Positions 1 through 59,100 of a DNA stretch of 64,000 nucleotides are shown here, piece by piece; the stretch's first letter is position 1; every line of letters begins with the position of its first letter. A program made the position numbers and the translations under genes. The notes under the pieces are model-generated. The model made no database searches, was not told the origin of the DNA, and saw nothing but the letters and a program-made list of their open reading frames with translations. The stretch covers positions 44,284-108,283 of the forward strand of contig CBFGKH010000009.1 in assembly GCA_965649295.1 (NCBI GenBank). The letters are read 5' to 3'. Source of the stretch: a candidate division WOR-3 bacterium (GTDB taxonomy: Bacteria > Hydrothermota > Tepidihabitantia > Tepidihabitantales > Tepidihabitantaceae).

Positions 1-1597
1 GCTTAGGAATCTTCCCAGCGGGAATTGCGGTAACAACGCTGTTCTCACCAGTGCTTGGTTCGACCGCCAGCTTGACGATTGCAAAGTGTCCGTGACCGCC
101 GCTTTGGCGGATGAACCGACCTTCAGCAGTTGCCGTTGCGGTGATTGTTTCTCGATAGGAAACCTGCGGTCGTCCAGGATGAACCTCGACTTTGTAGTCA
201 CGCTGCAGCCGATCAAGCAAGATTTCGAGATGCAGCTCACCCATGCCCGACAAGATTAGCTGACCAGTTTCCTCGTCGGTCCGTACTTTGAAAGTCGGGT
301 CCTCGAGCGCGAGCGTTTCAAGAGCGGTGTGCAGTTTTTCTTCATCAGCCTTAGTACGTGGTTCGACAGCAAGAAAAACGACTGGCTCCGGAAAGTTGAT
401 TGGTTCAAAGGCTATTGGGTGTGACAGGCTCGCCAGAGTCTGGCCGGTGCGTGTCTCCTTCATGCCAACGACGGCGCCAATCTCGCCGGCGCTGAGCGTT
501 GTTGTTTCTTGGGGACGGTTGGCATGCATAATCACGAGTTTTGGCACCCGTACTCGCTTCATCGTTGGCACGGCCATTACGACATCGCCTTGCTGAACGC
601 AACCCGAATAGACTCGGATGTAGTTCAGCATTCCGCGCATCGGGTCGGCTGCGAGCTTGAAGATTAGCGCCGCAAAGGGCGCAGCCGGGTCAGGGGGCCG
701 CGATTCAGGGTTGCCGGTGAGTGGATTTTTGCCGGTTATCGGCGGCACGTCGAGAGGTGATGGTAGATAGTCAACGATGCCGTCGAGCAGCTTCTGGATG
801 CCTTTGTTCTTGAAGGCAGTTCCACAGAACACAGGGACGACCTTTAGGCTGAGTGTGCCGCGACGGATGGCGGCAACGAGGTCAGAGGCAGTAACAGAAT
901 CGCCACCCAGGTAGATTTCAAGGAGTCTCTCATCGAATGTGGTAATGACGTCAATGAGATGGTGCCGCGCCGCAGCGAGTTCGGCTTGACGTTCTTCGGG
1001 TATCGGCACTTCTTCGAACGTTGCCCCAAGGTCGTCGGTATGCCAGACAAATGCCTTTTCAGCAACCACATCGATAACTCCTCGAAACTCGTCCTCGGTT
1101 CCAATCGGCAACTGCACCGGCAGTGGCACCTGTTCAAACTTTTCGCTCATCATCTTGACCACCCGATAGAAATCAGCGCCGACGCGGTCGAGCTTGTTAA
1201 CGAAAGCGATGCGCGGGACGCGGTAGCGATCAGCCTGTCGCCAGACAGTCTCGGACTGTGGTTCCACACCACCGACTGCACAGAAAACGATGACAGCGCC
1301 GTCCAGAACTTTGAGTGAGCGCTCGACCTCGATGGTGAAGTCGACGTGGCCCGGAGTATCAATGATATTGATGTGGTGACCACGCCACTGGACGGCTGTA
1401 GCGGCCGCGGTTATCGTAATTCCGCGCTCGCGTTCTTGAATCATCCAATCCATTTGGGTCGTGCCGGCATCGATCTCGCCCATACGGTGGATTCTGCCCG
1501 AGTAGTAAAGGATACGCTCGGTGGTTGTCGTCTTACCGGCGTCAATATGTGCAGCGATGCCGATGTTTCGAACGTAGCGCAGATCAAGTGCGGCCAT
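1..1597 (-). CDS. fusA: Elongation factor G (runs off left edge of window)
   Basis: Manual translation from ATG 1597: [55 protein letters not shown]; absent from the ORF track because its stop is outside the window. Confidence 0.97.
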
Positions 1598-24291: not shown

Positions 24292-25426
24292 GTGGTGCTA
24301 TCTTGTCACCGGGCTACTTCTCTGCTGGTATTGTTCTTTGGCAGTCGGGTTGGCCGAGCCAATTGACCTGCGGCAGTCGCTGGCCAAACTCGACAGCGCG
24401 AGCTCGTTCCGGTTCAGTCTCTCCTATCACGCCGGTGCGGGTTGGGGGATAGCGGCCAGTTTTCAGGGCTGGCGTCGTCGGCCCGACACCGAATTATGGG
24501 CCGGGACGTGGACCAACCAAGGGGTCAGTTCGCAGGTGGCGATGGTCGCTAGCGGCAGCAAGCAGTACACAAAGGGCGATGATGGCCAGTGGCTGCTGAC
24601 CCAACGCGGGGTGGAGACCAGAATACTTGACCAGGTGCAAGCAGTCCTGCTCGATACGATGGCATCCTTGCTGCGTCCCGGTGTTTATGGCTTTGCGGCG
24701 CGGATGCCCCTGTTCGATGCCGCCGCAGCTGGACGGTATCAGGGCGAGATTAGAATCGGCCGTAACGGAATGCCGGTTGCCATAGCCGTGCGTGAGACTG
24801 GCGGGAAGAGTGGCTGGGAGTGCCGGTTCAGCCGGTTCGGTTGGCCGGTGCGCATCCGGCTGCCGTTTGTCCCGGCCCAGACGATTCGTATCCAGCCCGA
24901 GACGAGGCACTGCTGCTGTGTTGTGCAGCAGGCGCGACGGCGGCTGATTGCCAGGTTTCGGTCAATCGGAGTTGATGTTCGGCTGGCGGCTGGTGGCCGA
25001 GTCATGGTTGACCAGGCGCTACCGGTTTCGCTCCTCGGAATGCTGGTTGGACAGGGCAAGGTCGAGCTCTGGTCTGCTGTTCGCACTGAAGACACGGCTG
25101 GCCAGCCAGTGGCTGGCGATGTCGCGCGCCGGGTTCGACTTGAACATTGGCTGCTTGCTAACCGCTCGCTGCTTGCTCGGCCTGATACCTTGCTACCGCT
25201 TTCGCCAACTCTGACTTGTGCGATTCTACCCGATTCAGTCGCTCGACTGGTAGCCCTAGTGGTTGATGGGCAAGTCCTTGATGTCCGTGAGGTGGAGCCT
25301 TACCAGGACAAGGTGCAGTTCTCTGAACTGGGTTCATCACCGTTTGTCGCGGCAATCGCGGCGATGGCGCAAGCCGCGCCATTGCCATTCGGTTTTAGGG
25401 TAGTCGAGGTCGGTAATGGCCGCTAG
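24281..25426 (+). CDS. Exported hypothetical protein; C-terminal part resembles the SecD P1 domain
   Basis: Long ORF between coupled genes; hydrophobic leader; start uncertain (GTG 24281). Confidence 0.6.
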   Translation: MTFRWCYLVTGLLLCWYCSLAVGLAEPIDLRQSLAKLDSASSFRFSLSYHAGAGWGIAASFQGWRRRPDTELWAGTWTNQGVSSQVAMVASGSKQYTKGDDGQWLLTQRGVETRILDQVQAVLLDTMASLLRPGVYGFAARMPLFDAAAAGRYQGEIRIGRNGMPVAIAVRETGGKSGWECRFSRFGWPVRIRLPFVPAQTIRIQPETRHCCCVVQQARRRLIARFRSIGVDVRLAAGGRVMVDQALPVSLLGMLVGQGKVELWSAVRTEDTAGQPVAGDVARRVRLEHWLLANRSLLARPDTLLPLSPTLTCAILPDSVARLVALVVDGQVLDVREVEPYQDKVQFSELGSSPFVAAIAAMAQAAPLPFGFRVVEVGNGR

Positions 25427-28400
25427 GTCTTGGCTTTGTCTCCTAATTGGCCTGGCAGTGGCGACTGCGGCAAGTGGAGAACCGAAAGTGCAGGTTCTCG
25501 GTTCAGACCGGACCGGCTTCAGCTGTCGCGTCGAGTTTGGGGAGCCGGTCTTGGTGGCCCGGGGTCAGGCTAGCAGGGTGGAGCTGGACGGCTGCGACAA
25601 CGTGGCAGAGCCAGGCTGCTTCGACCTGCCGAGCAAGACGATTTGCGTTGGTCTGCCGCAAAGCGGTGGCTACCGTCTCGAAGTAGTAGCGCGTGATACT
25701 TACTCGCTGTCAGCAGTAGTGGCGCGGGTTCCGCGCTGCTCTTGGGAAGATGAATGGGACGGGCAAGGCCCAGCAGCGAGCGCGAGGGAAGGAGGAGCGG
25801 CAGAGTCTAGTGGCGCTGCTACTGAGAAGTGTGGGCAGTCAGGCTGGGTAGTCGCTGGTGCGATCAGTTGTCGGCGTGGGATTCGTTTCGTGCCGCTAAC
25901 CCTCCGGCCTGTTCAATACGATGCCGGGCAGAGAACTGTCCAGGTTGCTCGGTCCCTTGAGCTGCGCGTTTGCTTCGAGCAACAGCCGGTTGAACTGAGT
26001 GTCACTGACCCGTTGACCGCGGTGGTCGGAAATTGGCTTCTCAACGGCACGGTTGCCGCAGCCTGGAGAGTAGTGGAGATGGGCGCCAATCCTAATCCTT
26101 TTGCCCGGTCGGCAAATTGGCTGCGGATTAGAATTGATTCGACCGGCCTCTACGGGATTACCGGTCGCGACCTGGCGGCGGCCGGGTTGTCACTGTCTGG
26201 TTTGGCTGTATCAACCCTGGCTTTGTACCGTCCGCAAGGAGCAGACCACGGGGCTAGCTTTGATTCGTTGGTGCCGGTTCCGATCCATGTTGACGATGGC
26301 GGTGATGGCAGGTTTGATGCCGATGATGTTATCGTATTCTGGGGGATTGGTGCGAGCCACTGGACTGCGCTGCAAGCCGAGTATGTGACCAATCTCTACT
26401 CGAACCAGAGCGCATACTGGCTGACATGGAATGGTGCGGCTGGTGCGCGGATGCCGGCTGGGCTTGGTCCTGATTCGATCGGGGCCAGGCGCGTCACGAC
26501 CGGTCTTGGCCGGGCTCGCATCGAGAAGGACTTGATATGTCCGGCACGTTCGGGTCTGCTCTGGCTTTGGCAGCAACTCTACAAGCCGCGGGAGCAGTTG
26601 GAGGCTTTGTTCCAGACCGACATTCGGCTAGTAGCGCCGTCTCGGCTCCTCGGTATTGCTGGCCGACTGCTTGCTGATTCTTCAGGTAATACTGTCAGCG
26701 TGAAATTGAATGGTCGGCAGGTCGGAACATTAGTTTTCAACGAGGCAACACCGGGCCGGCCGTTTCTTTTCAGCCTGGCTGCTGACTTGCCACTTGATTT
26801 CAGCAGCAACAGTATCGAGCTCAGCCTGCGTGGCAACGGTGGCAAGCGGCTCTGGGTTGACTATTTCGAGTTCGAGTACGAGAAGCGACTGACACTCGAA
26901 TGCGGCCAACTTTTCTTTGTGACAACCGACACCGGTCTCTGTCGCTATGTGCTGCGTGGTGTCAGTGCCTTGCCCTATGTGGTCAATACGACCGTGCCGG
27001 AACGGCCGTTGCTGATTACCGAGCCGCTCTGGCAAGGCGACAGTCTTGCTTTCTGCCATCGTGCTGGCCAAGCCAATGAGTTTGCAGTCGCGACCCGGAG
27101 TCAGTTGCGCCGGCCAAGCGAGATTCGGCGCTGCCAGCCGGGTCGGCTGCGTGACCGACTGGTGGCGGCTGACTACTGGATAATCGCACCGTCAGCCCAG
27201 TTTGCAGCGGCAGAGCGGTTAGCTCGCTATCGAACCGGCAACGTTCCCGGCATCAGCAATGCTCGGGTTGCGGTCGCAGTTCTCGAGGAGGTCTATGACG
27301 ACTATGGCGGCGGCAATGAATCTCCTTGGGCAGTGAAAAACTTCATTGCCGACAAGCAGCCAAGTTATGTCCTGCTCGTTGGCGACGCGACTTGTGACTA
27401 TCGCGGGCTATTGGGCCCCAGACCGGCTGGCGTGCCGGCCTGGGAGTATGGCTATGGTCTCAATCCGGATGCCTATGACCGAACCGTCATGGCCTTTGAT
27501 GCCTGGTATGCCGACTTCGAGGGTGATGGCGGGTCGCCGGACGCTATCCTTGGACGAGTGACCACCCGGGACGGAACTGAACTATCGCAATACGTCAGTC
27601 GAATCATTGAGTATGAGTCACGACCAACTGGCTACTGGCAGCGACGTTTTCTGTTGCTGGCTGACGACGAGTTCGAAGGGTCGGTGAGCCGGCCGGACCC
27701 GATTGGCTTTGGCCACATCGCCTATTGCGAGGCGATGGCCGCACTCGCCGACAATACCCTAGAACCGGTCAAGGTGTATCTTACCGAGTATCCGTATGTC
27801 GGGGTGAAGAACAAGCCTGGCGCCCATGCTGCTTTGATGCGGGAGCTAGGTCGTGGCGGTCTGGTCTTGGTCTTCTTTGGTCATGGCGCAGGTCACGACC
27901 TGACGCACGAGAGCGTATTGAACATCACTCACACCAGCAGCATCCGTAACGAAGGCCGGTCACCAGTGTGTTTCTTCGGCAGTTGCTCGGTGGGAAGATT
28001 CGACGACTGGCTCTTTGAGTGCATTGCCGAGGATATTGTCCGGCAGGGTGGGGCGATTGCAGCAGTGGCAGCAACCAAGGCGACCACTTCTGGTTCAAAT
28101 CAGGTATTCTGTCGTCAGTTCTTGACCCCACTCTTCTCGTGGCCGGATTCGACAGTCGGACTCAGCTTCTTTCTTGCCTGGCCAACCGACCGCATCTATC
28201 ACTTCTTCGGCGACCCAGCGCTGCGGCTACGTCTGCCGACCGTTGCGACCGCTCCGGTGACGGTTCGGCCCAGTGTTGCCCAACCGTTGCTTGAACTCTC
28301 CTGCCGAGCAGTGCTCGACACTTCGGCCGGCGAATACGAGTGGCGGTTCTTTGGGCCGCGCCGCAGCCGGCTCTATCGGTCAACTCAGGGCCAGGTAATC

Positions 28401-29270
28401 TACCTGCTGGCGGGAACAGAGGCAGGCCGGGGCCGAGGCCGTATCGAACACGGGATGGTCGCTTTTCGGACCATGCTGCCCTTGGGGATTCCGCTCGACA
28501 CCGTCTTTGTGGCGGACGGCTACTATGCGCCGGTTGTTCGGTCATGCCGAGTTGGGATCGTCACTGCTGAGCGGATATGGCGCAACGACACAATTGAATT
28601 CGCGTTGGACACTGCCCCGAGTGAGGACACGGCTGGTCCAACGGTCGAACTGCGTTGTAACGGTACCCGGCTGACCGACGGTGCAACCGTGCCCCGGGAC
28701 TTCACCCTTGAGGTCGTACTGACCGACACGAGTGGCGTGCTCGGCGCGGCGACACCGTTTGGTGCGGTGACGCTGACCATCGGTGCTGCTGCGCCGATTG
28801 ATGTGACGGATCGGCTCGCGTTCGGTGACTCGTACCGGCATGCGACCTTGACGGTACCGGTCAGTCTAGCCCAGGACTCGACCCGAATCACGCTCGTAGC
28901 CTGTGACAATGCCTTGAACAGAACCACGACTAGCGTTGTGGTGAGAAGCAGCAGTGTTGCCGAGTTGAAGCTCGACTCGCTACTGCTCTTTCCCAATCCG
29001 GCCCGCTATTCGACGAGTCTCTTCTTCTGGTCCAGCCGACCAGCGGTAGCCCGTTTCCGCGTCCATACCCTTTCCGGCCGGCTCGTCTTTGACTCTGGTA
29101 CTCGGGCGGTGCGTGCCGGGCACAACCAACTGGACTGGCACGGCCGTGACCAGCAGGGCAATATCGTACCGGCTGGTGTTTACCTTGTTTCCTTGCGGCT
29201 GACCAGTTCAGCTCCAGACCGACAGTCGCGCACGACGACCGCTTGCGAGCGACTAATAGTCCGTCGCTAG
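25416..29270 (+). CDS. C25 (gingipain-family) cysteine peptidase, PorU-like T9SS sortase
   Basis: Signal peptide, propeptide, GLYGIT, YVLLVGD, FFGHG and GSC catalytic motifs, D..GP.V, FPNP/FlgD-like C-terminus. Confidence 0.82.
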   Translation: MAARSWLCLLIGLAVATAASGEPKVQVLGSDRTGFSCRVEFGEPVLVARGQASRVELDGCDNVAEPGCFDLPSKTICVGLPQSGGYRLEVVARDTYSLSAVVARVPRCSWEDEWDGQGPAASAREGGAAESSGAATEKCGQSGWVVAGAISCRRGIRFVPLTLRPVQYDAGQRTVQVARSLELRVCFEQQPVELSVTDPLTAVVGNWLLNGTVAAAWRVVEMGANPNPFARSANWLRIRIDSTGLYGITGRDLAAAGLSLSGLAVSTLALYRPQGADHGASFDSLVPVPIHVDDGGDGRFDADDVIVFWGIGASHWTALQAEYVTNLYSNQSAYWLTWNGAAGARMPAGLGPDSIGARRVTTGLGRARIEKDLICPARSGLLWLWQQLYKPREQLEALFQTDIRLVAPSRLLGIAGRLLADSSGNTVSVKLNGRQVGTLVFNEATPGRPFLFSLAADLPLDFSSNSIELSLRGNGGKRLWVDYFEFEYEKRLTLECGQLFFVTTDTGLCRYVLRGVSALPYVVNTTVPERPLLITEPLWQGDSLAFCHRAGQANEFAVATRSQLRRPSEIRRCQPGRLRDRLVAADYWIIAPSAQFAAAERLARYRTGNVPGISNARVAVAVLEEVYDDYGGGNESPWAVKNFIADKQPSYVLLVGDATCDYRGLLGPRPAGVPAWEYGYGLNPDAYDRTVMAFDAWYADFEGDGGSPDAILGRVTTRDGTELSQYVSRIIEYESRPTGYWQRRFLLLADDEFEGSVSRPDPIGFGHIAYCEAMAALADNTLEPVKVYLTEYPYVGVKNKPGAHAALMRELGRGGLVLVFFGHGAGHDLTHESVLNITHTSSIRNEGRSPVCFFGSCSVGRFDDWLFECIAEDIVRQGGAIAAVAATKATTSGSNQVFCRQFLTPLFSWPDSTVGLSFFLAWPTDRIYHFFGDPALRLRLPTVATAPVTVRPSVAQPLLELSCRAVLDTSAGEYEWRFFGPRRSRLYRSTQGQVIYLLAGTEAGRGRGRIEHGMVAFRTMLPLGIPLDTVFVADGYYAPVVRSCRVGIVTAERIWRNDTIEFALDTAPSEDTAGPTVELRCNGTRLTDGATVPRDFTLEVVLTDTSGVLGAATPFGAVTLTIGAAAPIDVTDRLAFGDSYRHATLTVPVSLAQDSTRITLVACDNALNRTTTSVVVRSSSVAELKLDSLLLFPNPARYSTSLFFWSSRPAVARFRVHTLSGRLVFDSGTRAVRAGHNQLDWHGRDQQGNIVPAGVYLVSLRLTSSAPDRQSRTTTACERLIVRR

Positions 29271-29907: not shown

Positions 29908-31083
29908 ATGCCCCAAAGTCAGAATAGTCCTTTTGGCAAGAGCCCGATGCCACTCCTTTCGCGGAGCGGCTTGATTGTGAGAGTCCTTGGCTTGGTTATG
30001 GTCGTTGTTGCCATTGCTGGTGCCGGCCAGAACCCGGGGGCAGTGTTTCTCATGATCTGGCCGGCGGCCCGGCCCACATCGCTTGGCGGTGCTTTTACCG
30101 CTATCGCCGACGACGCGAGCACGGTTTTCTATAATCCCGGCGGCATGGCTTTCCTGCCCCGGACAAATGCAACGTTGATGCACTGCAACTGGCTGCCCGG
30201 GCTTTATCCCGGGATGTACTACGAATACGCTGGTGTGACGCATAGTCTCGGCAGTCGCGGCAGCGTCGGTGGCAACGTCGTCTATCTGACGACTGGCGAA
30301 ACCGATGTGATAAACGAGCGCAACGAATTCCTCGGCCGTTACACGACTTTCGATGTGGCGGTTACCGGCTCCTATGGCTACCCAGTGCTGCCCAATCTCG
30401 GCTTGGGCGTTGGCGCTAAGTTTGTCTATTCCTTCTTGGTTCCGGATTGGGTCTGGAGCGTGATGCCGGAGCTTGGCATTGAGGCTGGCGGCACCGGTAT
30501 CACCTGGGCGCTCGACGCCGGCGCGCTCTATCGGCCTTTCGACTTTCTCAAAGTCGGAATGTCGCTGGCCAATCTCGGGCCGAACATCTCCTATACCTCG
30601 TCAGGGGAATCAGACCCACTGCCGCGGATGCTGCGGCTGGGCGTCGCCTACACGCCAGTGGACAATCGGATAGTGAAACTCACGGTCTCTCCCGAGTTTA
30701 CCAAGATACTGGTCGGCATGTTCTACAACCCTGATGGCGACAAGACCCTTGGCCGGATGTTGCAGGAGGAATGGCGCAGCACCTGGCGCAGTTTCGGGGT
30801 TGAGGCCTCATTTGTCAATCTGATTCATGCTCGGGTTGGCTACTTTGAGGACATTGAAGGTCAGCGCGGCGGCATCGTGCTCGAACGGCCGGGCGAGAAT
30901 CAGGTTCATTACGGCCTTGACGAAGTGCTGGTGCGTAAGAATCTGGGGCGGTTCAAGTCCCTTGGCCTCTGTTTCGGGGCTGGCATCGAGTATGCCAAGT
31001 TCAAGTTCGACCTGAGCATTGACAAGTTGATCTACGACTTTCCGACCGACAACTACAAGTTCTCGCTTTCATACCAATTCTGA
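29908..31083 (+). CDS. PorV-family outer-membrane protein
   Basis: FLMIWPAARPTSLG.A.TAIADDA...FYNPGG, NLGP.ISY, PLP..LRLG, C-terminal Phe; promoter TTGACG-N17-TATAAT at 29874-29902. Confidence 0.82.
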   Translation: MPQSQNSPFGKSPMPLLSRSGLIVRVLGLVMVVVAIAGAGQNPGAVFLMIWPAARPTSLGGAFTAIADDASTVFYNPGGMAFLPRTNATLMHCNWLPGLYPGMYYEYAGVTHSLGSRGSVGGNVVYLTTGETDVINERNEFLGRYTTFDVAVTGSYGYPVLPNLGLGVGAKFVYSFLVPDWVWSVMPELGIEAGGTGITWALDAGALYRPFDFLKVGMSLANLGPNISYTSSGESDPLPRMLRLGVAYTPVDNRIVKLTVSPEFTKILVGMFYNPDGDKTLGRMLQEEWRSTWRSFGVEASFVNLIHARVGYFEDIEGQRGGIVLERPGENQVHYGLDEVLVRKNLGRFKSLGLCFGAGIEYAKFKFDLSIDKLIYDFPTDNYKFSLSYQF

Positions 31084-33927: not shown

Positions 33928-36900
33928 TTGGTGAACATTTCGGTGCTACTTGTTTTGCTAGCGACTGCCGCTCGTGTTCAACCCGGCGTTCTATGCTCGG
34001 TAGTGACGCTAGGTGATGGCGTCACTCGTGTCTTTGAGTTCCAGCACTCGCTGGTTGTCGAGGGTTCAGAATCGATCTATCTCGGAGACCGGGTTCTTGA
34101 CAGTACTGAATACCTCGTTGACTATCATCGCGGGCTAGTTGTATTGACCAGCGCTCCGCCATTGTGGTCCCTTTTGGTTCTCACCTATCGTAGCCTGCAG
34201 CCGCTGCTGGGTAGCAGCGACAGGGTCTATCAATCGCGGCCGATGGTGGTGGGGATCGCGGCGGCGACCCCTGAGAGCAGTGTCGCAACTGGTTCTGAGG
34301 TCACGGTGGTGAGTGAGGAATCGGCCGAGCCAGGGCTCGTTGTCAGCGGGACCAAGTCACTGGGCGTTTCGTTGGGTTCGGCTGGCGGCATTGAGCAGTC
34401 CACGCGGCTGACGGTCAGCGGCAGAGTCGAGGGCGTTGATGTGGCAGCAGAGCTTAGTGACGCGGCAGTCGGGATCCCAGCGGAAGGAATGTCGCAGCGT
34501 GTTGATGAGTTTGACCGACTGCTGCTCCAGCTTCGGGGACGGCATTGGCGAGCGACAATGGGCGACATAGACATGATGCTGCCGGCTGGAGGATTTGGTA
34601 GTATCAGACGGCGCGTCGTTGGTGCCCGGGCCGGCGTGGACCTGTTGCGGACAGAGATGACAGCACACTACGCCATGCCCAAAGGCAGGTCAGGCTATCT
34701 GGCGATTAGTGGTGAAGATGGGGTTCAGGGGCCCTATGTCCTCGCTGTTGAGGGGAGGGAGGCAACGATCGTTGCTGGCAGCGAGCAGGTCTGGCTTGAC
34801 GGCGAGAAACTCGAGCGCGGTTGGGACGCCGATTACACCATTGATTACTCAACCGGTGAGGTTTTCTTCACAAGCCGTCGGCAGATTAGTCGGTCTTCAC
34901 GCATCGAAATCAGCTACCAAACTGCCACAACCGATTACGTTCGCTCAAGTGTCGCTGGCACAGCAACTGCCACGTCTGGACCGTTTCGGCTTGGTGTCTT
35001 GCTCTTTCGCGAGGAAGATGACACCAGGCGGCCGACATTCGGAGAGCTAACCGAATCAGAAAAAAGGCGGCTGGCTTCAGTTACAGCCGATTCCGGTTTT
35101 GCCTGGTTTGACGGAGGAGTCTATGTCGGTCCTGGCAAGGGCGAGTATCAGCGAGACAGCAGCAGTTATCGGTATGTCGGTGCGGGTGCGGGTGAATACC
35201 GAGTTACATTCACGGCGGTCGCTGACTCTGCCGGTGACTATGTCTATGATGACTCGCTGCTGGCCTGGCGCTACGTCGGGGCGGGCCAGGGTAACTATGT
35301 TGCCCGCAAGCGCGTCGCTCTGCCCGAGCGGCGTGAACTGGGTGTGGCAACGGTTGCGCTTAGCCAGGGACTCTGGTCAACGGCAATTGACTTTGGGATA
35401 ACCGGGGCCCGTCATAACCTCTTTTCGACCACGGCTGCGGCGGTTGTGGCCGGGGCGCTCAATGTTGACGTGGTCTGGGGCGACTCGACCCGCAGCATCA
35501 GTTATTCGCGCCGAATGGCTGGCAGAGGATTCAGGTTTCCGGGCGAGACCCCAGAAATTGACTTCCCTTGGCGTTGGGGTGGAATTGGGGCCTCGGCGCG
35601 CCAGGCCGGCGATGAGGTCAAGCTGTTCGTCAGACCGGCTCCCGGGGTTCGGATTCTGGCTGAGGCAGGTAGGCTGCAATGCAGTGATGCGAGTTCGGTT
35701 CTGCGTTACTCAGGGAATCTCGAACTGGGTGTTGTCAGGTTGTCAGGGACAAGCGTTGGCGCAACGAGTCGAGCCGAGGCGAGCATTGCACCCCGATTGG
35801 GTAGCCTTCTGCCGTCATTGGGTTGGCGAATTGTTGCCAGTGATACTGGGCGTGAGGATCATCTGCTGACCGGTATCGCTACGAGACAGGCCGGCTTCAA
35901 CACGGCATTTGATATTGACTATTCTTTCGAGAGGTTCAATGCTGACACATCACTGCGTAACGCCGCTACTCTGGCACGCGGTCGGGTTGAGTGGCAGCCA
36001 AGTGACGCGTATCGGACGACGCTGGCGGCTACGTACAACAGTCGGTCGGCAGTAACCGCGAGCAGCGCCGAGGGAAACCGAGTCGGCATCAGCCTTAGTA
36101 TCTTCGCGGCACCGCGACCGGGTGTCCGGTTTACTTTCGACGGCGAGCAGGCTGGACGCCGCGTGCAGCTACGCGATGAGACTTTCAGTTACGTCGGGAC
36201 TGGCCGGGGAGCTTACCGCCGCGATTCAGCTACAGGCCGTTTCTTCCCCGATTCCCTGGGTGGCTACGAACGCGTGCTGGTTCCTTCCGGGCGAACGACA
36301 CTGGCCCGTGAGTTGACGGCCAACGGTTCAATCGAGCTGAGTCAAGTTTGGCCTGTGACCGTGCAAGGTTCGTTCAGTCATCTGGCAACGGTAACCGACA
36401 CCGGTGTGCTTCGCCGGTTGCTGGCGATAGATCTAAGAATGGCGCTTGCTGATGCCGATTGGCCCCTGACACCGGCACTTGGCACTGCTTATGACATGAC
36501 TGAGGATCAGTTGGTAGCGGCTACAGGGACGTGTTCCCGGCGAGCGCGGGCTTGGGTTGAGGTCTACGGAGAAGAGTTCGGTCCGTTTAGTAGCCGGGTT
36601 CGAATTGAAGGCGCGCATGAACGAGTTGGAGGAACGATTGCCGAGCGTAATGATGACATCGGTAGAGTCGAGATCAGCCCGGTGCTCCGATTGTTACGTC
36701 TAGAACTACCAGTCGGGATAGAATGGCGCAGGGTGGAGCTGCCGAGAAGGCATCCGGAGCTAGGTACATTTGGTGTTTGGGCTGTTCGTGCGGGACTGGC
36801 TCGGAGTTTATTCATTCAGGAGCGCGGGCGTGTACGGGGTTCGTTGGAACTGTTGCGAAGGCTGGCGACTATTCCTGTTATGCCATATGAGGTTGCGATG

Positions 36901-37053
36901 AGCGAACCTACCGGTTGGCTGCCCAGCGCCACGATTGAGGCTTCATACGCAATATCGAAGGTCCTATCGGCTTCGGCCCGTTACTCATATCGGAAGCGAC
37001 CCGACCGGCCGTCTGAGCACGGATTGGGGGCCGAGCTGCGAGCCGATTTCTAG
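33928..37053 (+). CDS. Large outer-membrane protein
   Basis: 1041 aa, signal peptide, two GSE..(W/Y)L.....L.....Y.(I/V)DY..G modules, beta-rich C-terminal half ending in Phe. Confidence 0.75.
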   Translation: MVNISVLLVLLATAARVQPGVLCSVVTLGDGVTRVFEFQHSLVVEGSESIYLGDRVLDSTEYLVDYHRGLVVLTSAPPLWSLLVLTYRSLQPLLGSSDRVYQSRPMVVGIAAATPESSVATGSEVTVVSEESAEPGLVVSGTKSLGVSLGSAGGIEQSTRLTVSGRVEGVDVAAELSDAAVGIPAEGMSQRVDEFDRLLLQLRGRHWRATMGDIDMMLPAGGFGSIRRRVVGARAGVDLLRTEMTAHYAMPKGRSGYLAISGEDGVQGPYVLAVEGREATIVAGSEQVWLDGEKLERGWDADYTIDYSTGEVFFTSRRQISRSSRIEISYQTATTDYVRSSVAGTATATSGPFRLGVLLFREEDDTRRPTFGELTESEKRRLASVTADSGFAWFDGGVYVGPGKGEYQRDSSSYRYVGAGAGEYRVTFTAVADSAGDYVYDDSLLAWRYVGAGQGNYVARKRVALPERRELGVATVALSQGLWSTAIDFGITGARHNLFSTTAAAVVAGALNVDVVWGDSTRSISYSRRMAGRGFRFPGETPEIDFPWRWGGIGASARQAGDEVKLFVRPAPGVRILAEAGRLQCSDASSVLRYSGNLELGVVRLSGTSVGATSRAEASIAPRLGSLLPSLGWRIVASDTGREDHLLTGIATRQAGFNTAFDIDYSFERFNADTSLRNAATLARGRVEWQPSDAYRTTLAATYNSRSAVTASSAEGNRVGISLSIFAAPRPGVRFTFDGEQAGRRVQLRDETFSYVGTGRGAYRRDSATGRFFPDSLGGYERVLVPSGRTTLARELTANGSIELSQVWPVTVQGSFSHLATVTDTGVLRRLLAIDLRMALADADWPLTPALGTAYDMTEDQLVAATGTCSRRARAWVEVYGEEFGPFSSRVRIEGAHERVGGTIAERNDDIGRVEISPVLRLLRLELPVGIEWRRVELPRRHPELGTFGVWAVRAGLARSLFIQERGRVRGSLELLRRLATIPVMPYEVAMSEPTGWLPSATIEASYAISKVLSASARYSYRKRPDRPSEHGLGAELRADF

Positions 37054-37146: not shown

Positions 37147-37728
37147 GTGATGATGGCAACAAGACATGACTCGGGGCCGCGACCGCTGCGGCGCGGCAAA
37201 AAGACTAACCCCATGCAGCAGTACCTCTTGATCGCCGGAATCTTCGTGGCGCTAATTGTGGTTATGGTGTTGCTGATGACGAGTCGAAAGCCGGCGGCTG
37301 CGCCGAGGGTGGCGACGCGGGTGAAGAGCGAAGAGGGAACAGAGGAGAGCCGCTCGTCGCGGCGTAAGGAAGCGTCTCCCCGCGCTAGTCGAGCACTTCG
37401 ACGTGAGCGCAAGGATAAGGAAGAAGTGCGCGAGCAGCGACGTCGTGAGCGCGAGGAGCGGACAATGGTGCGTCGCAACGAGGAACGGTCGAGCAGACGA
37501 ACCGGTTCCGCTGACTTGAACTCGCGGGTCCGGACGAGCAGTCCGTATCAGTTGCGGGCGATAATGACCGACGAGAGTGGAGTCCGTTATGCGCTGGTTG
37601 GTGACCGTCGATTTCGAGCTGGCGACGATATCGGTGGGCGCAAGCTCGTTGAGATTGGTGTTGACGAGGTGAAGGTAGATAACGGCATCAGCACATACCC
37701 GGTAAAAGTCGGTCAGACAATCTACTAG
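37147..37728 (+). CDS. Single-TM protein with charged linker and GspB/PilP-like C-terminal beta domain
   Basis: One TM helix, R/E-rich region, LRAIM...YALVG......GD.IGG..LVEI...V; GAGGAG SD. Confidence 0.65.
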   Translation: MMMATRHDSGPRPLRRGKKTNPMQQYLLIAGIFVALIVVMVLLMTSRKPAAAPRVATRVKSEEGTEESRSSRRKEASPRASRALRRERKDKEEVREQRRREREERTMVRRNEERSSRRTGSADLNSRVRTSSPYQLRAIMTDESGVRYALVGDRRFRAGDDIGGRKLVEIGVDEVKVDNGISTYPVKVGQTIY

Positions 37729-37746: not shown

Positions 37747-38319
37747 GTGAATCGATTAGCCCTGTTGCTGCTGTCATATTCTCTGCTCCTAGGCAACAAT
37801 CTAGTAATCAATGGTGACTTCGAGCTAGACCCAATCGCCAATGGCTGGGTCTTTGAGCGCTGGGGCAATTACCCGGACACTGGCAACTGTCGGTTGCGCT
37901 GGCTTCATAGTCTGAATCCGGACCGCGACTTTGAGGTGATGGTTCAGAAGACGCTCCACCGTGAGGCGCGACTCTCCCAAGTCGTACGGGTGCCAAGCCT
38001 AGAACTCGAGTTCGCTGTCTCCTGTCAGATGTACTGCTCGACACGCAGCGAATCAACATGGACTGCGGCCTGCGTCAATCTTGACTACCTTGACGTTCAG
38101 GATTCAGTCCTTGGTACCACCAGAATCTACAAACCTACCTCTGGCTGTACCTGGGTTAGCGATACGAAGCTTTACTTGATTCGGGTGAATGATACGCTAT
38201 GGCATGACTATCGGATTGATGTCGCTGTCGAGCTGGCGCAACATCTGCTCGGTGTCAATGTTGCTGACATCCGCTCGATCCGAGTAGGGATTGTCGGCTA
38301 TGTTGTAGACGACTGCTGA
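37747..38319 (+). CDS. N-terminal part (signal peptide and CBM-like domain) of a probable single gene 37747-39675 read through TGA
   Basis: NLVINGDFE domain start; ends ..VDDC-TGA in frame with the next ORF. Confidence 0.75.
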   Translation: MNRLALLLLSYSLLLGNNLVINGDFELDPIANGWVFERWGNYPDTGNCRLRWLHSLNPDRDFEVMVQKTLHREARLSQVVRVPSLELEFAVSCQMYCSTRSESTWTAACVNLDYLDVQDSVLGTTRIYKPTSGCTWVSDTKLYLIRVNDTLWHDYRIDVAVELAQHLLGVNVADIRSIRVGIVGYVVDDC

Positions 38320-38367
38320 ATGGGGCGACCAGAGGCGAAGGTCTTCGCCGACAATATTTCGCTCCAT
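38320..38367 (+). promoter_or_regulatory. Candidate bacterial SECIS element
   Basis: Lower stem ATGGGGCGA/TCGCTCCAT; upper stem GGCGAA-GGTC-TTCGCC (38334-38349) with AGGTCT apex, directly 3' of the in-frame TGA. Confidence 0.65.
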
Positions 38368-39675
38368 ACCCGCACCACTCCAAGTTTGGAGTATCGAACG
38401 TTCGAGATTGACGATGCTGGTGGAATAGTCAATGGTAAGCTTGACCCGGGAGAGGAGGCGATACTGCGGTTGGTACTGCAGGCAGGTGGTGGCAGCGTTC
38501 CGGCGACTACTGGCCGACTTTCGAGCCGGTCGAGTTCGCTTGCTGTATTGGATGCGGACGCCGAATTTGGGCCGGTCCTAGCCGGTGAGACGACGGCTTG
38601 TGTGGTCAATCCCTTCCGGGTTAGAGCTTCTCCTACTGCTCCGGTTGAAGAGGCAGCCTGGTGCGACCTAATACTTGCCGGAGATCACTACGATGACACT
38701 GTCTCGGTGCCCGTCATAATTGGCGACTCAATGAATCTGCCGCTTGGGCCAGATAGGTATGGCCATCGTATGTTTGACTACAGCGACTCGGCATACGAGC
38801 AATGTCCTGACTATGACTGGATAGAACTACGGGGAATCGGAACCCGTCTGCCCCTAGGCAACGACGAGACGAGGACGGTGCCGTTACCAGTGCAGTTTGG
38901 CCGATGGTGCTGGTATGGTGTGGCGTACGATTCGATCTCAATTTGCTCTAACGGTTGGATAGCAGCGGGAGTAACGGAACGCCCAGATTTTGTCAATATC
39001 ATTCTGCCCTACAGCGGTTCACCGGCCAACATCCTCGCTTTCCTCTGGTGTGACCTTGACCCGAGTCGCTATGGTGCCATCTGGTATTGGTACGACACAG
39101 CAGGTCATCGGTTCATTGTCGAGTTTGACTCAGTTCCTTACTTTGCTTTGCCGAACAATTGGGAGAAGGTCCAAGTACACATTTACGATGAACATGTTTT
39201 AAGCTCAGGCTGCGACAACCTTGTAACTATTCACTACCAAACCGCAAATGCCTGCAGTCTGATCACAGTTGCTTTTCAGAACAGTGACGGAACCGATGGT
39301 TTGACTCATGTCTGGAATAGCTGGCATCCGCGGGTCAGTGCGCCAATCAGAGCAGGCAGTGCGTTCGGCATTGTAGCAGGGCCATCGGTTGGTGTTGGCA
39401 AACGTCAATCGGCTGAGCCAGCCAGCGGGGGACGGGTGGTTGTTTCTCCAAGCCCGTGTCGGCGCGGCCGACCGGTGTTGTTTAGTCTCTCCGGAGGTAA
39501 TGTACAGACCTTGGAGATTACCGATGGATTGGGGCATCGTGTTGCCCAGCTTCTTTTGAACAAGGGACAGACGACGGTCAGGTGGTGGCCGGTGTCGCTA
39601 CCCAATGGTGTTTATTTTGTTATGTCCAGGACGCCGGGCGCCGTGGAGTGTGAGAAGCTTGTCCTGCTTGAGTGA
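38320..39675 (+). CDS. C-terminal part of the secreted T9SS-type protein (Ig-like and SNGW/nidogen-like module plus CTD)
   Basis: No signal peptide or SD; NGKLDPGE, ICSNGW, V.PSP...GVYFV...KLVLLE CTD. Confidence 0.8.
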   Translation: MGRPEAKVFADNISLHTRTTPSLEYRTFEIDDAGGIVNGKLDPGEEAILRLVLQAGGGSVPATTGRLSSRSSSLAVLDADAEFGPVLAGETTACVVNPFRVRASPTAPVEEAAWCDLILAGDHYDDTVSVPVIIGDSMNLPLGPDRYGHRMFDYSDSAYEQCPDYDWIELRGIGTRLPLGNDETRTVPLPVQFGRWCWYGVAYDSISICSNGWIAAGVTERPDFVNIILPYSGSPANILAFLWCDLDPSRYGAIWYWYDTAGHRFIVEFDSVPYFALPNNWEKVQVHIYDEHVLSSGCDNLVTIHYQTANACSLITVAFQNSDGTDGLTHVWNSWHPRVSAPIRAGSAFGIVAGPSVGVGKRQSAEPASGGRVVVSPSPCRRGRPVLFSLSGGNVQTLEITDGLGHRVAQLLLNKGQTTVRWWPVSLPNGVYFVMSRTPGAVECEKLVLLE

Positions 39676-39748: not shown

Positions 39749-41392
39749 TCACTTCAGTTTGACGACGCGGGCAGTCGTTAGGGGGATGGTTCGGTCGTGC
39801 GTTTCAAGCATACAGACATAGGCTCCTGCCGGTGCTTGATTGCCGGATTCGGTCCGGCCATCCCAGATTACCTCGTTCGGTCGGGTAGGCAAGAGCGTAC
39901 GCACGACATTGCCCGTAGCGTCGCAGACTCTAACAGTCGGGCCAGGTTCGAGGACCGAGTTCCAGCGTAGTGTTACAGTTTGCCCGAATATCGTCGGATT
40001 AGCCATCAAACAGCCGAGCTTGATCGCTAGCGGTTGGGCCGGTGTGTTTACGGCGGTAGCAGTTATCGGTAGTGTGGTATCGTACGGACAGAGATTGGGG
40101 CCGGTAACGACCAACCGAACCCGACCCGTATCCGGTAGTGTAACTTGGAGCTTGATTACACCCAGCGAGTCAGTGTAGCCGTAGCTATAGACGGTTGTAT
40201 CGCTGGCCATTGAGAGACAAGCAAGTGCGCTCTCTCTTGCGACACCGGCAGCGATGACTACGATATCGACACGCTGCAAGCCAGGGAGCAGTGTTGGCGG
40301 ATGGCTTACACTCGGACGCTCCGGTGTCTTCGTCCAGACGCGCAGGGACGGATCGCCGAGCAGATTGAAACCACGGTAGTCGTTAGTGCGTGAGGGGAAC
40401 TCAGTGTATAGCTGCTGCTTGGCTCGCAAGAGCAACTTGCCTAGTGGCAGAATTCCTTCGCTGAAGAGTCCGGTAAAGAAGCCACGAGCTATGGCGCCTC
40501 GAACGCGGGCAACGTTATTGTCACTATGGGTGTTACCGATGAAGGCAACTGCGCCTTTGAGCGCTGAGACCGTCCCGGTCTTTAGCCAAGCCTCGCCAAC
40601 CATTGATTCATTCGGTGTCAAGGTCATCGTGGCACAGGTAGCGGAGAGAATCACAGGCAGTTTGGTGCCGTTGCTAGTCGCGGCGGGATTGACAGCAAAT
40701 GGGTCATACCAGTTGCCGACTGCGCTGCCGCGATAGAGCACAATGCCTCGGCCAGCGTTAATCGCTGACACGACATGGCTAGCTGAATGGCCACGGTAGT
40801 TTGAAAAAGAATCACAGCTTACCCAGCCAGCGGTACGAGCAAGGCTGGCCGCATAGCGGGCGTCATTCCAATAGACTGTGTCGTCGCTATCACCGCCTTC
40901 TCGAACAATCGTCACAAGGCGACGCATCCAGAGCGTGTCAGTCAGGTCCGGATAGCGTTCGTAGGCCAACGTCTTGGCGACCATAACGTCAAGCTGAGCT
41001 GCTGTGCGGGCGGGAAAACGACCAACCGGTAGCTCGGCTCGGAAATCGCCAGTGACATCACCGTAGTTGTTATCGGTAGCGTAGTCGTAGGGCATTGTCC
41101 GATAGTAGACTGCCGGCAGCGAGCTTTGTGAACCGACTAGCAAAACGTACTCGGGCCGCACCGGCCAGTTGTTGTAGGCGTTGCGAATGTAGCTGTGAAT
41201 CGACCCTGTGTCGCTACCAATCGTCGAGAGTTTGACAACCCGCGTCGAGAGCCCAGTAGCATGTTTCCACTGGGCAAGCGGCAGAATTGAGTTGTACAGT
41301 GCGTCAGTGGTTATTATCAGCAGCCGTGCGCCGTCATCGGCAAGAACGGTCGTTGTCAAAATAGCCACCAGGAGAAATGCCAGTCGTTTCAC
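39749..41392 (-). CDS. C25 (gingipain-family) protein with FlgD/T9SS-type C-terminal domain
   Basis: Signal peptide, YVLLVG, VGRFP, K...YE, FNLLGDP, WDGR..G..AG.Y. Confidence 0.85.
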   Translation of the reverse strand: MKRLAFLLVAILTTTVLADDGARLLIITTDALYNSILPLAQWKHATGLSTRVVKLSTIGSDTGSIHSYIRNAYNNWPVRPEYVLLVGSQSSLPAVYYRTMPYDYATDNNYGDVTGDFRAELPVGRFPARTAAQLDVMVAKTLAYERYPDLTDTLWMRRLVTIVREGGDSDDTVYWNDARYAASLARTAGWVSCDSFSNYRGHSASHVVSAINAGRGIVLYRGSAVGNWYDPFAVNPAATSNGTKLPVILSATCATMTLTPNESMVGEAWLKTGTVSALKGAVAFIGNTHSDNNVARVRGAIARGFFTGLFSEGILPLGKLLLRAKQQLYTEFPSRTNDYRGFNLLGDPSLRVWTKTPERPSVSHPPTLLPGLQRVDIVVIAAGVARESALACLSMASDTTVYSYGYTDSLGVIKLQVTLPDTGRVRLVVTGPNLCPYDTTLPITATAVNTPAQPLAIKLGCLMANPTIFGQTVTLRWNSVLEPGPTVRVCDATGNVVRTLLPTRPNEVIWDGRTESGNQAPAGAYVCMLETHDRTIPLTTARVVKLK

Positions 41393-56141: not shown

Positions 56142-59100
56142 TAGCGGGTGAAGACGACCTTGGTCGTTGACAGCTCAGAGTCATTCTGGAGCTGCAGCCA
56201 ATAGACGCCTGCCGCGAGCCTGGTGCCAGTGGCGTCACACCCATCCCAGATTAGCTGATGTCTGCCAGCCGACTGCTGTCCCTCGAAGAGCAGTCGTATC
56301 CGTCGGCCGCTGTTATCATAGACGGCGACCTGTGTCCGTTCGGGTCTCGTCAGGACATAGCCAATGTGGATAGTGCCGCCTACCGGATTACTGTTTACCC
56401 AGAGTCGTTGCGACCGACCAGGTTCAGGTTGGTCAGCTACCACGACGCCGGTCGGGTCGTCGGTTGCGAACTTGATTGCCCGATTCGGTTCAATTGCGGC
56501 GCAGCCACGGCTATAGGCTCCATCAAAGAGGCACTGAATCGCGATGGTTCGAGTTGGGTCCTGCTCACCAACCGTGCATGAGGTCAGGTCCGACACAATC
56601 TGATACTGGACTACCGCCTTGCAATTGCCATCACCGGCTGCGAGTGTCGTATCGTAGAGAATCAGTTGGAACTTCTGGAAGGCTGTCCGATTCCGATACA
56701 AGGGCACCGAGTCATACTCGACGATGAAACGGTGATTGGTCGCGTCGTGGTAATACCAGACTCCACCACCGGTCGGCGGATAGAGGTCATCCCAGTAGAG
56801 GCAGAACATCGGCGGCAGCGAAGTGTTGGGCAGCGACGTGTTGGTATAGGCCGAACTCGTTGTCGTACCCAGACCAACCCAGCCATTGGAGCAGACTGCC
56901 AGTTGGTTGTAGTTCTGGCCGTAGAATCGGAACGGGCCAAAGCCACTCGGCAGGCTGACCGTTGCGGTCTGGTCATCAGACAAGGTCAGCCGCGTTCCGA
57001 TGTTGGCAATTTCTACCCAGTTGTAGGTTGGTCGAGCTGAATAGCCCACGTCAACATCGTCGTAAGCCCAGTAGAGCGCTGGGGTGCGCGGTCCATCCGG
57101 GATCGGGTCAATCGGCCTTATCTCACCAACTACAATCTCAAATCCGATGCTGTCCTCATAATCGGTACCGCTGAGGTAGATGGTCATCCGGGCGCTGTGC
57201 TCGCGCGGCGTATTTGGCGCTGCGGCAATGCGGAAAGGTGAGGCTGTGTTTGTTCGCACAGAATCTGGCGCCATCGCGCCATACTGGGCTATTGACTCTT
57301 GGATGCTGACAAACCCATCGCTCGTCCGCAGCACCGCACTAAGGGCTGCCAGCCCAACACGGCCGGCATTCTTCAAGGTAACTAGCAGGCCGGCGGTCTC
57401 GCCCGGGTCAAGCTTGCCGTCGTTGTTGCCGCCGGGGGGCGAATCGAGCACTGTCTTTGTCTCATAGACGATTGCCGGCGCGTTGACGACAACTGCCTCA
57501 ACAGCATCAAGGTCAAACCCGGCATATGGGCCAGTGCCGCCATTGCCATCGTCGCGGATGCGCACAAATCGAGCAATAGCTTGGCCAGCCGCACTCAGGT
57601 CATAACCTTGGGTGCCGGTGCCGAACCCGACATAGCGCCACGGTCCAAGCCAGTTGTTGCTAACAAAGACGCTGCAAGCCTCAGGGTCGCCGTCGTCTTC
57701 GACAACAAAGAAGTCATAGCCGGGGCCGTTGACGATTGGCGTGTTTGCTCCCATATCAAGGGTAACGAACCCGCCATTGCCCAGTGAGAAGCGACGGCTG
57801 TCGCGGCGACCCAAAGCCCAGCAGGCATTGGTCGGATTGGAGTTGGCTGGCGACTGAGCTATCTTGCAGGTATTGACCTTGAAGGCGCAGACCGGCGCGG
57901 TGCTGTCCGGCGGCAGCGTGATGTTCACGACCACATAGGTGTCGGCTGGAACCACGATGCCACTAATCGTCCGGCTCGCATAGCCGTTGGCTATTGCTGT
58001 TACACTATAAGTGCCGGGTCGCAGGTTCTTGTGATAAAAGCCAATGGCGTCGGTATAGGTGAACCAGCCCGGTGGATTGACCTCGATTCGGGCCGCAACT
58101 GGTTGGCCGGTGACCGAATCAGTAACATAACCACGGATACCCCAGGCCACGCGGACAATCTGTTCCCTCATTGCCGTCCAGTTGGCACGGTTGATGGTAT
58201 CAATTTGCGAAGGCGGGCTGGGCTGGCCATCACAGACCTCAATTGCGTAGCCGAGCGCACCGCGTGCACCGTAATACCAGTCGGTTGAACCGCCGTTGAC
58301 TGAGTAGAGGACGCGTGCTATCTGGCCGCTCGGATAGTTGCAGATGGTGCCGTAGCGGTTCATCTCATAGGCGTGGATAATCGAATCCATCGTCGCCAAT
58401 GTCGTGTAGCCCCACGGTTGCATCGCCAGCTCAGTACCCGAATGGTACTGACTCCACGCTGCCATCGGATATTCCTCGGCAAGATGGTAGAACGCCTGCA
58501 CCTCGGTTTCCTGAAATGGCACCGCGCCGCCGCCAGCCCCTTCGTCAAATGCATACCCGTAATCCCGGTTCATATCAATGCCGTGGTCGTTGTAGCGCGA
58601 GCGTGAGACGAGGCCGTCAGGGTTGCTCATCGGGATGAGCCATATCTCCCGTTCGTTCACCAGATAGGTTACGAGCGGGTCAACCCCGTAGTTCTGCAAC
58701 AACTGCTTCATCACATGGTCAGCAATCTCACAGCCGTTGTTCTCATTACCGTGAATCGAGAAGTCAAAGCAGATGCGTGGCTCGCCCTCCATGACATCGG
58801 GATTGTCAGTAATCTTCATTGCGACAAGCAGCCGGCCGCCGGCCGAGGTGCCGATCGTGTCAAACCGGCAAATGTTCGGATACTGAGCAGCAATCATTCC
58901 CCAAGTATCGCGGAAGTAAACGTAAGAATGGAAGTAGGCGTCGAACTCCATTGCCCGGGCACGAACGTCCGGCACCAACACCTCGACACGGTAGCCTTTA
59001 GCCAAGAGCTCTTCGTAAACCGGCTTCTGCACGGCGCCGATAAACCACTCTGGCGTGGCTGCGTAGAACTCAAGCACCTGCTGGCGGAAGGTCTGCACCT

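Follow-up and report, generated by a model that had tools for sequence, protein, structure and literature searches.

Most known bacterial selenoproteins are cytoplasmic and are either thioredoxin-fold proteins or metallo-enzymes. Thioredoxin reductase carries its selenocysteine (Sec) in a C-terminal Gly-Cys-Sec-Gly redox centre, and a vicinal Cys-Sec pair of this kind can form a selenenylsulfide. In Escherichia coli fdhF, a coding-region hairpin, the selenocysteine insertion sequence (SECIS), lies directly downstream of the UGA, and a bulged U in the upper stem of this element is a contact and determinant for SelB. A further point of comparison comes from the Cys-Sec (CU) selenoproteins SaoB, SaoC, SaoL, HgcA and KCU-star, which, in the part of Haft's preprint drawn on here, are typically truncated at the CU in databases; SaoB and SaoC are exposed outside the cytoplasm, and the CU is read as a heavy-metal ligand pair (bioRxiv 10.1101/2022.07.06.499078). 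Here we describe a gene in a 64,000-nucleotide stretch of DNA from a candidate division WOR-3 bacterium (contig CBFGKH010000009.1, positions 44,284 to 108,283; hereafter the window). This gene very probably encodes Sec and belongs to a new family.

The locus appears as two open reading frames (ORFs), 37747..38319 (190 aa, ending in ..GYVVDDC) and 38320..39675 (451 aa, beginning with MGRPEAKVFADNISL). As a preliminary description of this DNA had stated, and as both the ORFs and their joined translation confirm, the two share one frame and are parted solely by a TGA at 38317-38319. Read-through yields a product of 642 residues with Cys190-Sec191. We propose that this is one gene, that its UGA would be decoded as Sec by the cell's own SelB and tRNA-Sec, and that the decoding would be directed by a hairpin 20 nt downstream, whose stem has 6 bp and whose apical loop is GGUC. 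The hairpin would sit within the coding sequence and would also encode the start of a beta strand (AKVFAD), the last in the domain that the UGA interrupts. The predicted protein would consist of a signal-like start, a jelly-roll with the fold of a carbohydrate-binding module (CBM), Ig-like and beta-rich domains, and a sorting domain of the type IX secretion system (T9SS), with Cys190-Sec191 placed in the loop before the last jelly-roll strand. The preliminary description had already suggested a single exported protein of 642 residues with Sec at position 191 and hairpin-aided decoding. That suggestion is supported by the Sec machinery of the genome, the conservation of the TGA, covariation in the hairpin and its restricted synonymous codon choice, a jelly-roll that runs across the TGA, and co-occurrence with SelA.

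Homologues provide the comparison that the preliminary description had proposed, namely whether this column holds TGA or Cys and whether the hairpin covaries. We searched 41 related genomes in six frames with the joined protein. Among the matches listed, 38 start before residue 100, and of these 36 contain one TGA, one contains two and one contains none; the remaining listed matches start at residue 179 or later, mostly at about 200, reach about residue 640 and have no stops. In every one of the 22 loci that we extracted, the same loop holds the TGA; its place agrees to within one alignment column and is 4-7 residues ahead of a conserved A-[KE]-V motif, and the protein is conserved on both sides of it (31-53% identity). 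A scan of one genome per species using a peptide pattern added 55 further loci, all of which have an in-frame TGA 5-8 codons ahead of the motif and at least 187 open codons upstream. The metagenome-assembled genomes that hold them are labelled by their submitters as Cloacimonadota, Stahlbacteria, Eisenbacteria, Krumholzibacteriota, Thermoanaerobaculales or "uncultured bacterium". The pooled set comprises 70 distinct homologues read at the DNA level, at 30-56% identity, and the in-frame TGA is present in 70/70; the inner part of the hairpin covaries among them, as described below. An even sample of 201 genomes from the phylum gave 126 listed matches to the N-terminal domain, 123 of which reach the column; 121 of these have a TGA and two do not, a count of TGA presence made without row-by-row checking of its position. 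Members of the family often stand in tandem arrays, for example as three copies at G209:C5:76763-82836.

Downstream of the TGA, GGCGAA (38334-38339) and TTCGCC (38344-38349) form an inner stem closed by a GGTC loop (38340-38343), and in the window ATGGGGCGA (38320-28) pairs with TCGCTCCAT (38359-67) as an outer stem. The 60-nt region folds with -21.1 kcal/mol (z -2.66; 3/200 shuffles are as stable), and the 16-nt inner hairpin alone with -7.3 kcal/mol (z -2.87). It is not this single fold that marks the hairpin as more than chance; it is more than chance because TGA and inner hairpin recur together in 70/70 distinct homologues. The loop is GGTC in 66/70 and AGTT in 4/70, and the spacing from TGA to loop is 17, 20, 23 or 26 nt in 20, 44, 5 and 1 sequences, respectively. 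The consensus fold of the 22 extracted sequences (alignment A1) contains the inner stem only, with an invariant GGTC and compensatory changes in four of seven pairs. The preliminary description had seen a two-stem hairpin directly 3' of the TGA. Both stems are indeed present here and the inner one is conserved, but the outer one is peculiar to the window. Neither the consensus fold nor the folds of individual homologues contain it, and we rejected the two-stem structure as the functional unit.

A larger alignment (A4) holds 62 of 77 regions, the 15 excluded being duplicates or near-duplicates chosen by eye. Its six inner pairs form a standard pair in 371/372 cells; four of them show compensatory changes, and 28 cells are changed on both sides. 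None of 500 shuffles matched the observed percentage of cells paired, the numbers of pairs and of cells with changes on either side of the stem together, or the score for covariation. The number of further pair types was less distinctive, being matched by 59/500 shuffles in A4 and by 500/500 in A1. When the register of A4 is slid, pairing falls to 18-66%. A seventh pair is weak and is unpaired in 20/62 sequences.

Codon choice within the hairpin is similarly constrained. Compared with background use in the same genes, Ala is GCG in 68/70 (background 30%), Val is GTC in 66/70 (44%), the other Ala is GCC in 67/70 (42%) and Ser, where present, is TCC in 23/23 (18%); the Asp codon just past the stem is free (GAT 38, GAC 32). 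The amino acids themselves are coupled across the stem. We found AKVFAD (AAG..TTC) in 42 sequences, AEVSAD (GAG or GAA..TCC) in 22 and the G.U intermediate AEVFAD in 4. The pair-breaking combination AKVSAD was seen in none of the 70, though the search pattern permitted it. Lys-to-Glu and Phe-to-Ser replacements thus co-occur because their codons base-pair. The putative SECIS stem is translated, so its base-pair covariation surfaces as coupled replacements in a beta strand: Lys with Phe, Glu with Ser, Glu with Phe as the intermediate, and Lys with Ser never. This is a clean natural case in which an RNA hairpin constrains a beta strand and is constrained by it in turn.

The preliminary description had likened the apex of the hairpin, and its distance from the UGA, to those of E. 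coli fdhF. On NC_000913.3, fdhF reads TGA-CACGGCCCATCGGTTGCA-GGTC-TGCACC, which bears this out: both genes have a coding-region hairpin directly downstream of the UGA with the same A-GGUC-U apex, and the GGUC loop occupies +19..22 after the UGA in fdhF and +21..24 in this gene. Unlike this point of comparison, the family shifts its spacing by whole codons, and four of its members have an AGUU loop. The bSECIS model, as given in the part of the source drawn on here, specifies a loop of 3-9 nt with a G in its two leading positions, a stem of 4-16 bp, a distance of 16-37 nt from the UGA and a minimum free energy <= -7.5 kcal/mol (PMC13188914). Three of these four constraints agree with the family's hairpin, which has a 4-nt loop with G likewise placed, a 6-bp stem and a spacing of 17-26 nt. 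Rfam, its bacterial SECIS models included, gives no covariance-model match at 38317-38370, even at E <= 10.

Decoding UGA as Sec would require the corresponding machinery, and the preliminary description had proposed a search of the genome for selA, selB, selC and selD. The source genome (2.28 Mb in 19 contigs, rated 100% complete, with the window on contig C9) encodes SelA (500 bits), SelB (345 bits, over the curated cut-off), two SelD proteins and one tRNA-SeC with anticodon tca, so that the whole set is present. In each selD gene a single in-frame TGA occurs, near the N-terminus where it is expected (AG-U-AAKV and AG-U-ASKL). The two genes lie at G000:C1:318451-319377(-) and C1:355394-356299(-), and the second directly adjoins selB (C1:356367-358244). 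TGA is also an ordinary stop in this genome, where it terminates 430/1149 stop-to-stop frames of at least 300 codons as well as the gene described here. A frame at G000:C6:70681-71028(+), with an AhpC/TSA (peroxiredoxin-like) domain and one in-frame TGA in a 489-aa open frame, is probably another selenoprotein. FdhA (TIGR01553) was searched for and not found in this genome. Three known selenoprotein families were thus looked for, giving two SelD, one peroxiredoxin-like protein and no FdhA, versus four Sec genes of the new family. When the whole genome was scanned for TGA codons that precede a hairpin with a GGTC loop and have a long open frame to either side, the scan singled out only these four family genes. 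The three beyond the window lie at G000:C2:194863-196755(-), G000:C3:252044-253627(-) and G000:C11:6239-6670(-). Each has one in-frame TGA and the same type of hairpin. One reads YSG-U-GT, another, in a 1669-aa frame, EDG-U-TN, and the third is a short form that stops 26 codons past A-C-U.

The family also follows SelA across the phylum. In the 201-genome sample, 67 genomes have SelA and 56 have the family; 55 have both, one has the family only, 12 have SelA only and 133 have neither. The sole family-only genome, G173, is in 300 contigs. Two genomes, G013 (92% complete) and G027 (98% complete), lack both the family and SelA and yet sit inside taxonomic families that otherwise have both. In five related genomes (G038:C37, G040:C59, G147:C14, G182:C133 and G192:C233) selA and a member of the family share a contig and are 4-11 kb apart, which is not the arrangement in the genome of the window.

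The position of the TGA within the protein can be judged from structural models. A model of residues 16-216, built from 23 aligned sequences, has a mean confidence (pLDDT) of 93.3 and forms a beta jelly-roll whose last strand follows residue 191. In the full-length model (mean pLDDT 81.2), the jelly-roll is followed by an Ig-like domain at residues 214-325, a beta-rich one at 335-545 and, at the C-terminus, a sandwich. When the N-terminal domain was compared with 48,161 chains by VIA-align, it matched the C-terminal domain of TSP4 of phage CBA120 (Z 14.8) and, among CBMs, porphyran-binding (13.8), hyaluronan-binding (12.9), CBM16 (12.5) and CBM4-2 (11.6) modules; Foldseek agrees (TM 0.44-0.53). 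The preliminary description had placed the last strand of a CBM-like jelly-roll after the TGA, and both the model and the CBM fold matches bear this out. Since that strand follows the TGA, the TGA cuts a single domain; it also parts the putative export signal from the sorting signal.

The likeness to jelly-roll CBMs (CBM4, CBM16, CBM61 and the porphyran- and hyaluronan-binding modules) covers 135-149 aligned residues at Z 10.7-13.8 and includes an NGDFE-type first strand at the N-terminus; the ..ADD.SL last strand presumably corresponds to the last strand of CBMs as well. The module contains a candidate Sec, and the part of the selenoprotein catalogue drawn on here contains no Sec CBM (PMC13188914). 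Pfam gave no CBM family or other match on the N-terminal domain at E <= 1, and the joined protein and both pieces had chance-level matches only. NCBIfam has no model on the N-terminal domain, its only match in the protein being a sub-threshold one to the C-terminal domain (CTD). A profile search of the PDB found nothing credible for residues 214-545, and Foldseek with the full-length model returned only low-TM multi-domain matches; with VIA-align, the N-terminal domain took up the matches to that model.

The preliminary description had seen a T9SS-type CTD in the downstream part. The CTD of this protein itself falls below the cut-off of the profile hidden Markov model (HMM) TIGR04183 (E 0.0086; 16 bits vs 23), but homologues and fold speak for the assignment. 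Among 22 homologues, HMMs recognize FlgD_ig in 16/22, Por_Secre_tail in 5/22 and CHU_C in 3/22; the CTD profile matches FlgD (1.5e-5) and PorZ (1.4e-3) in the PDB, and the fold superposes on the CTD of PorZ with Z 10.3 and a root-mean-square deviation of 2.5 over 83 residues. The signal-like start stands on the upstream side of the TGA alone, the sorting domain on the downstream side alone. A gene for the T9SS component PorV lies at window 29908-31083 (+) (PF19572, E 7.7e-9).

Protein databases contain this family mostly as severed N-terminal pieces. A collection of 5.8 billion proteins contains no unsplit protein of 353-1126 aa matching residues 1-215, and all 11 relatives of the N-terminal piece found there are 189-232 aa long and "hypothetical" or unnamed. 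A domain profile run against 1.84 billion cluster representatives (50% identity clusters) returned 318 at E <= 0.001, 184 of them at E <= 1e-10. Among the best 150 of the 318, 116 stop exactly at the Sec column, with C as the last residue in 84 and G in 23; a further 16 read through, and the other 18 are fragments. A Cys at the Sec column, or at the column preceding it, occurs in six of the 16 that read through; Cys forms are a small minority, and the family consists nearly entirely of Sec forms. The TGA in this gene almost certainly stands for Sec, and with it a large family comes to light: predicted exported, lectin-shaped selenoproteins of uncultured bacteria that lack annotation and are regularly split by gene callers. 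In annotation, the "hypothetical 190-aa proteins", which number in the hundreds, should be joined to the neighbours downstream of them.

We found no described family to which these proteins belong, in keeping with the preliminary description, which had recognized none. No such family is present in NCBIfam, and Table 1 of a 2026 review, which catalogues 119 families, lists no jelly-roll, lectin-like or T9SS family (PMC13188914). None is mentioned among the nine new families of deep-Sep, in the portion of that work drawn on here, or in BSepDB, taken as its main text without the supplement. A full-text literature search likewise found no description of one among titles and abstract openings. As judged from sequence, the family is therefore a new one of predicted bacterial selenoproteins with a coding-region SECIS. 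Like the CU selenoproteins in the part of Haft's preprint considered above, it has a vicinal Cys-Sec, is truncated at the CU in databases and shares with some of their members an extracytoplasmic location, here a predicted one. Unlike them, it has no NCBIfam match on its N-terminal domain, carries a CBM-like jelly-roll, would be T9SS cargo, occurs in other phyla and alternates CU with GU. With thioredoxin reductase it shares the vicinal Cys-Sec, and some members are exactly G-C-U-G (L053). In contrast to that enzyme, the pair lies in an internal beta-sandwich loop and not in a flexible C-terminal tail, the protein is predicted to be extracellular and no flavoprotein partner is evident. A large family that is nearly all Sec, predicted to be exported, lectin-shaped and invisible to annotation departs from most known bacterial selenoproteins.

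The residue before Sec varies within the family. Of the 70 sequences, 36 have Cys in this place, 23 Gly, 6 Thr, 4 Ser and 1 Tyr. The CU motif to which the preliminary description drew attention is thus present here and is the commonest form, but it is not a family invariant. Among 98 representatives that end at the Sec column and whose N-terminus is complete, profile column 88 (alignment A2; about Thr103 in the window) is Cys in 12/22 Gly-Sec vs 1/68 Cys-Sec forms, as counts uncorrected for relatedness. This Cys could be an alternative partner of the selenol, or a mere clade marker.

Several other explanations of the TGA have to be set against decoding as Sec. If it were a true stop, the locus would encode a 190-aa exported piece and a 451-aa downstream protein that are conserved neighbours. 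Gene callers do annotate it in this way, 116 of the best 150 representatives end there, and in the window an ATG directly follows the TGA. The preliminary description had seen that AUG as buried by the hairpin, a feature that proved to be a local accident: only 4/70 sequences have ATG right after the TGA, none has GTG or TTG there and most have GGN, so there is no conserved restart. With the last jelly-roll strand after the TGA in a model of pLDDT 93, the signal-like start confined to one side and the sorting domain to the other, and no reason left for either the nucleotide-level constraint on the hairpin or the co-occurrence with SelA, we consider a true stop very improbable. Read-through without Sec, in which a near-cognate tRNA (Trp, Cys or Arg) would read the codon and the hairpin would be a general read-through stimulator, accommodates the Cys found at the site in some relatives, which insertion of Cys would mimic. 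This too is improbable. It leaves the tie to SelA unexplained (55/56 vs 12/145); the loop is the GGUC SelB-binding loop of E. coli fdhF and fits the bSECIS loop, stem and spacing as quoted above; and in SelD this genome already uses UGA as a Sec codon.

That the codon arose by nonsense mutation, in a pseudogene or through assembly error has the bare presence of a stop codon in its favour and nothing more, and it is hardly credible when 70 distinct sequences at 30-56% identity, drawn from assemblies independent of one another, have the same codon at the same place between intact flanking frames. Genome-wide reassignment of TGA (code 4 or 25) we regard as negligible, given that TGA ends 430/1149 long frames and this gene itself, that paralogues of the C-terminal part have no internal TGA, and that the tRNA reading UGA is tRNA-Sec.

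Some observations nevertheless weigh against reading this gene as one that encodes Sec with the aid of a SECIS. The sampled genomes are related, so the presence of SelA in 55/56 genomes with the family vs 12/145 without it is a pattern and not a probability or a test statistic. The pattern used to collect the 55 further loci is itself encoded by the hairpin, which makes the presence of the hairpin in them partly circular, their TGA and synonymous choices being free of this. Unlike that of fdhF, the 6-bp stem here is perfectly paired (GGCGAA/UUCGCC) and has no bulged U, and the core alone misses the bSECIS energy limit quoted above (-7.3 vs -7.5 kcal/mol), which is reached only with flanks (-21.1 kcal/mol, 60 nt). 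The putative SECIS loops of the two selD genes, UGCAG-GUA-CUGCA and GCGC-AGUUG-GCGC, are unlike the GGUC hairpin, and if these varied loops are genuine the single SelB would therefore have to accept several. Finally, 10/16 read-through representatives have no Cys near the Sec column, and at C3:200402-202171 this genome has a paralogue in which both TGA and Cys are missing from the site; taken as a whole, the fold family can therefore do without the residue.

Features of the predicted selenoprotein gene in the window, with the basis for each
Feature	Coordinates	Strand	Basis and remarks
Whole predicted selenoprotein gene	37747..39675	+	GTG start; 642 codons; Sec codon 191; terminal stop TGA 39673-39675; homologues align across the TGA
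Signal-peptide-like N-terminus (MNRLALLLLSYSLLLG), putative export signal	37747..37794	+	Read from the sequence by eye; helix 2-13 in model
N-terminal CBM-like beta jelly-roll, residues 17-208, broken by the Sec codon	37795..38370	+	Model of residues 16-216
Last jelly-roll strand, residues 196-208 (AKVFADNISLHTR), 3' of the TGA	within 37795..38370	+	Model
In-frame TGA, predicted Sec191, after Cys190	38317..38319	+	Conserved in homologues
SECIS-like hairpin GGCGAA-GGUC-UUCGCC, doubling as A-K-V-F-A codons of the last beta strand	38334..38349	+	Covariation, synonymous constraint, fdhF loop
Outer stem (38320-38328 pairing with 38359-38367), window-specific, outside the family signature	38320..38367	+	Predicted fold of the window
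Ig-like beta-sandwich, residues 214-325, no family assigned	38386..38721	+	Secondary structure and confidence of full-length model
Beta-rich domain, residues 335-545, no family match	38749..39381	+	Common to many 1000-1670-aa proteins without TGA in these genomes
C-terminal beta-sandwich, T9SS-type sorting domain, residues 557-642	39415..39672	+	Homologue HMMs, profile and fold; own HMM score sub-threshold

Besides the PorV gene, the type IX secretion context around the gene includes a peptidase C25 with a FlgD_ig-like tail at window 25416-29270 (+) and a second peptidase C25 at 39749-41392 (-), which is convergent with the selenoprotein gene. The two ORFs directly upstream, 33928-37053 (+; 1041 aa) and 37147-37728 (+; 193 aa), have no Pfam match; the shorter one combines a hydrophobic segment with a long Arg/Glu/Ser-rich stretch. 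Residues ~202-608, from the C-terminal part of the protein, have a paralogue with 31% identity at window ~56276-57508 (-), corresponding to G000:C9:100559-101791, in a 1033-aa frame without TGA. This genome contains about a dozen such large paralogues.

The predicted arrangement of the protein invites the question of what the residue does. We tentatively suggest that an exposed Sec on a surface or secreted module may serve as a redox centre or as a ligand for soft metals or chalcogens, a suggestion against which it counts that it is drawn from analogy with Cys-Sec proteins only. As a redox centre, the Sec might form a selenenylsulfide with the vicinal Cys or, in Gly-Sec forms, with a Cys from another loop. 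A more far-reaching proposal, which we think unlikely, is that this family, and not formate dehydrogenase, is the main user of Sec in an uncultured FCB-type group, bearing an exposed selenenylsulfide on type IX cargo with selenium-gated delivery. The partner would then be the vicinal Cys in CU forms and perhaps the Cys of another loop (column 88) in GU forms. The gating would follow from the position of the sorting domain beyond the UGA, which would tie delivery of the cargo to the supply of selenium. If this proposal were true, the family would be a reason why such bacteria keep the Sec machinery, and its lectin-like module, placed at the tip of cargo of the type IX system, would give these anaerobes an extracellular surface that is redox-active or captures metals or chalcogens.

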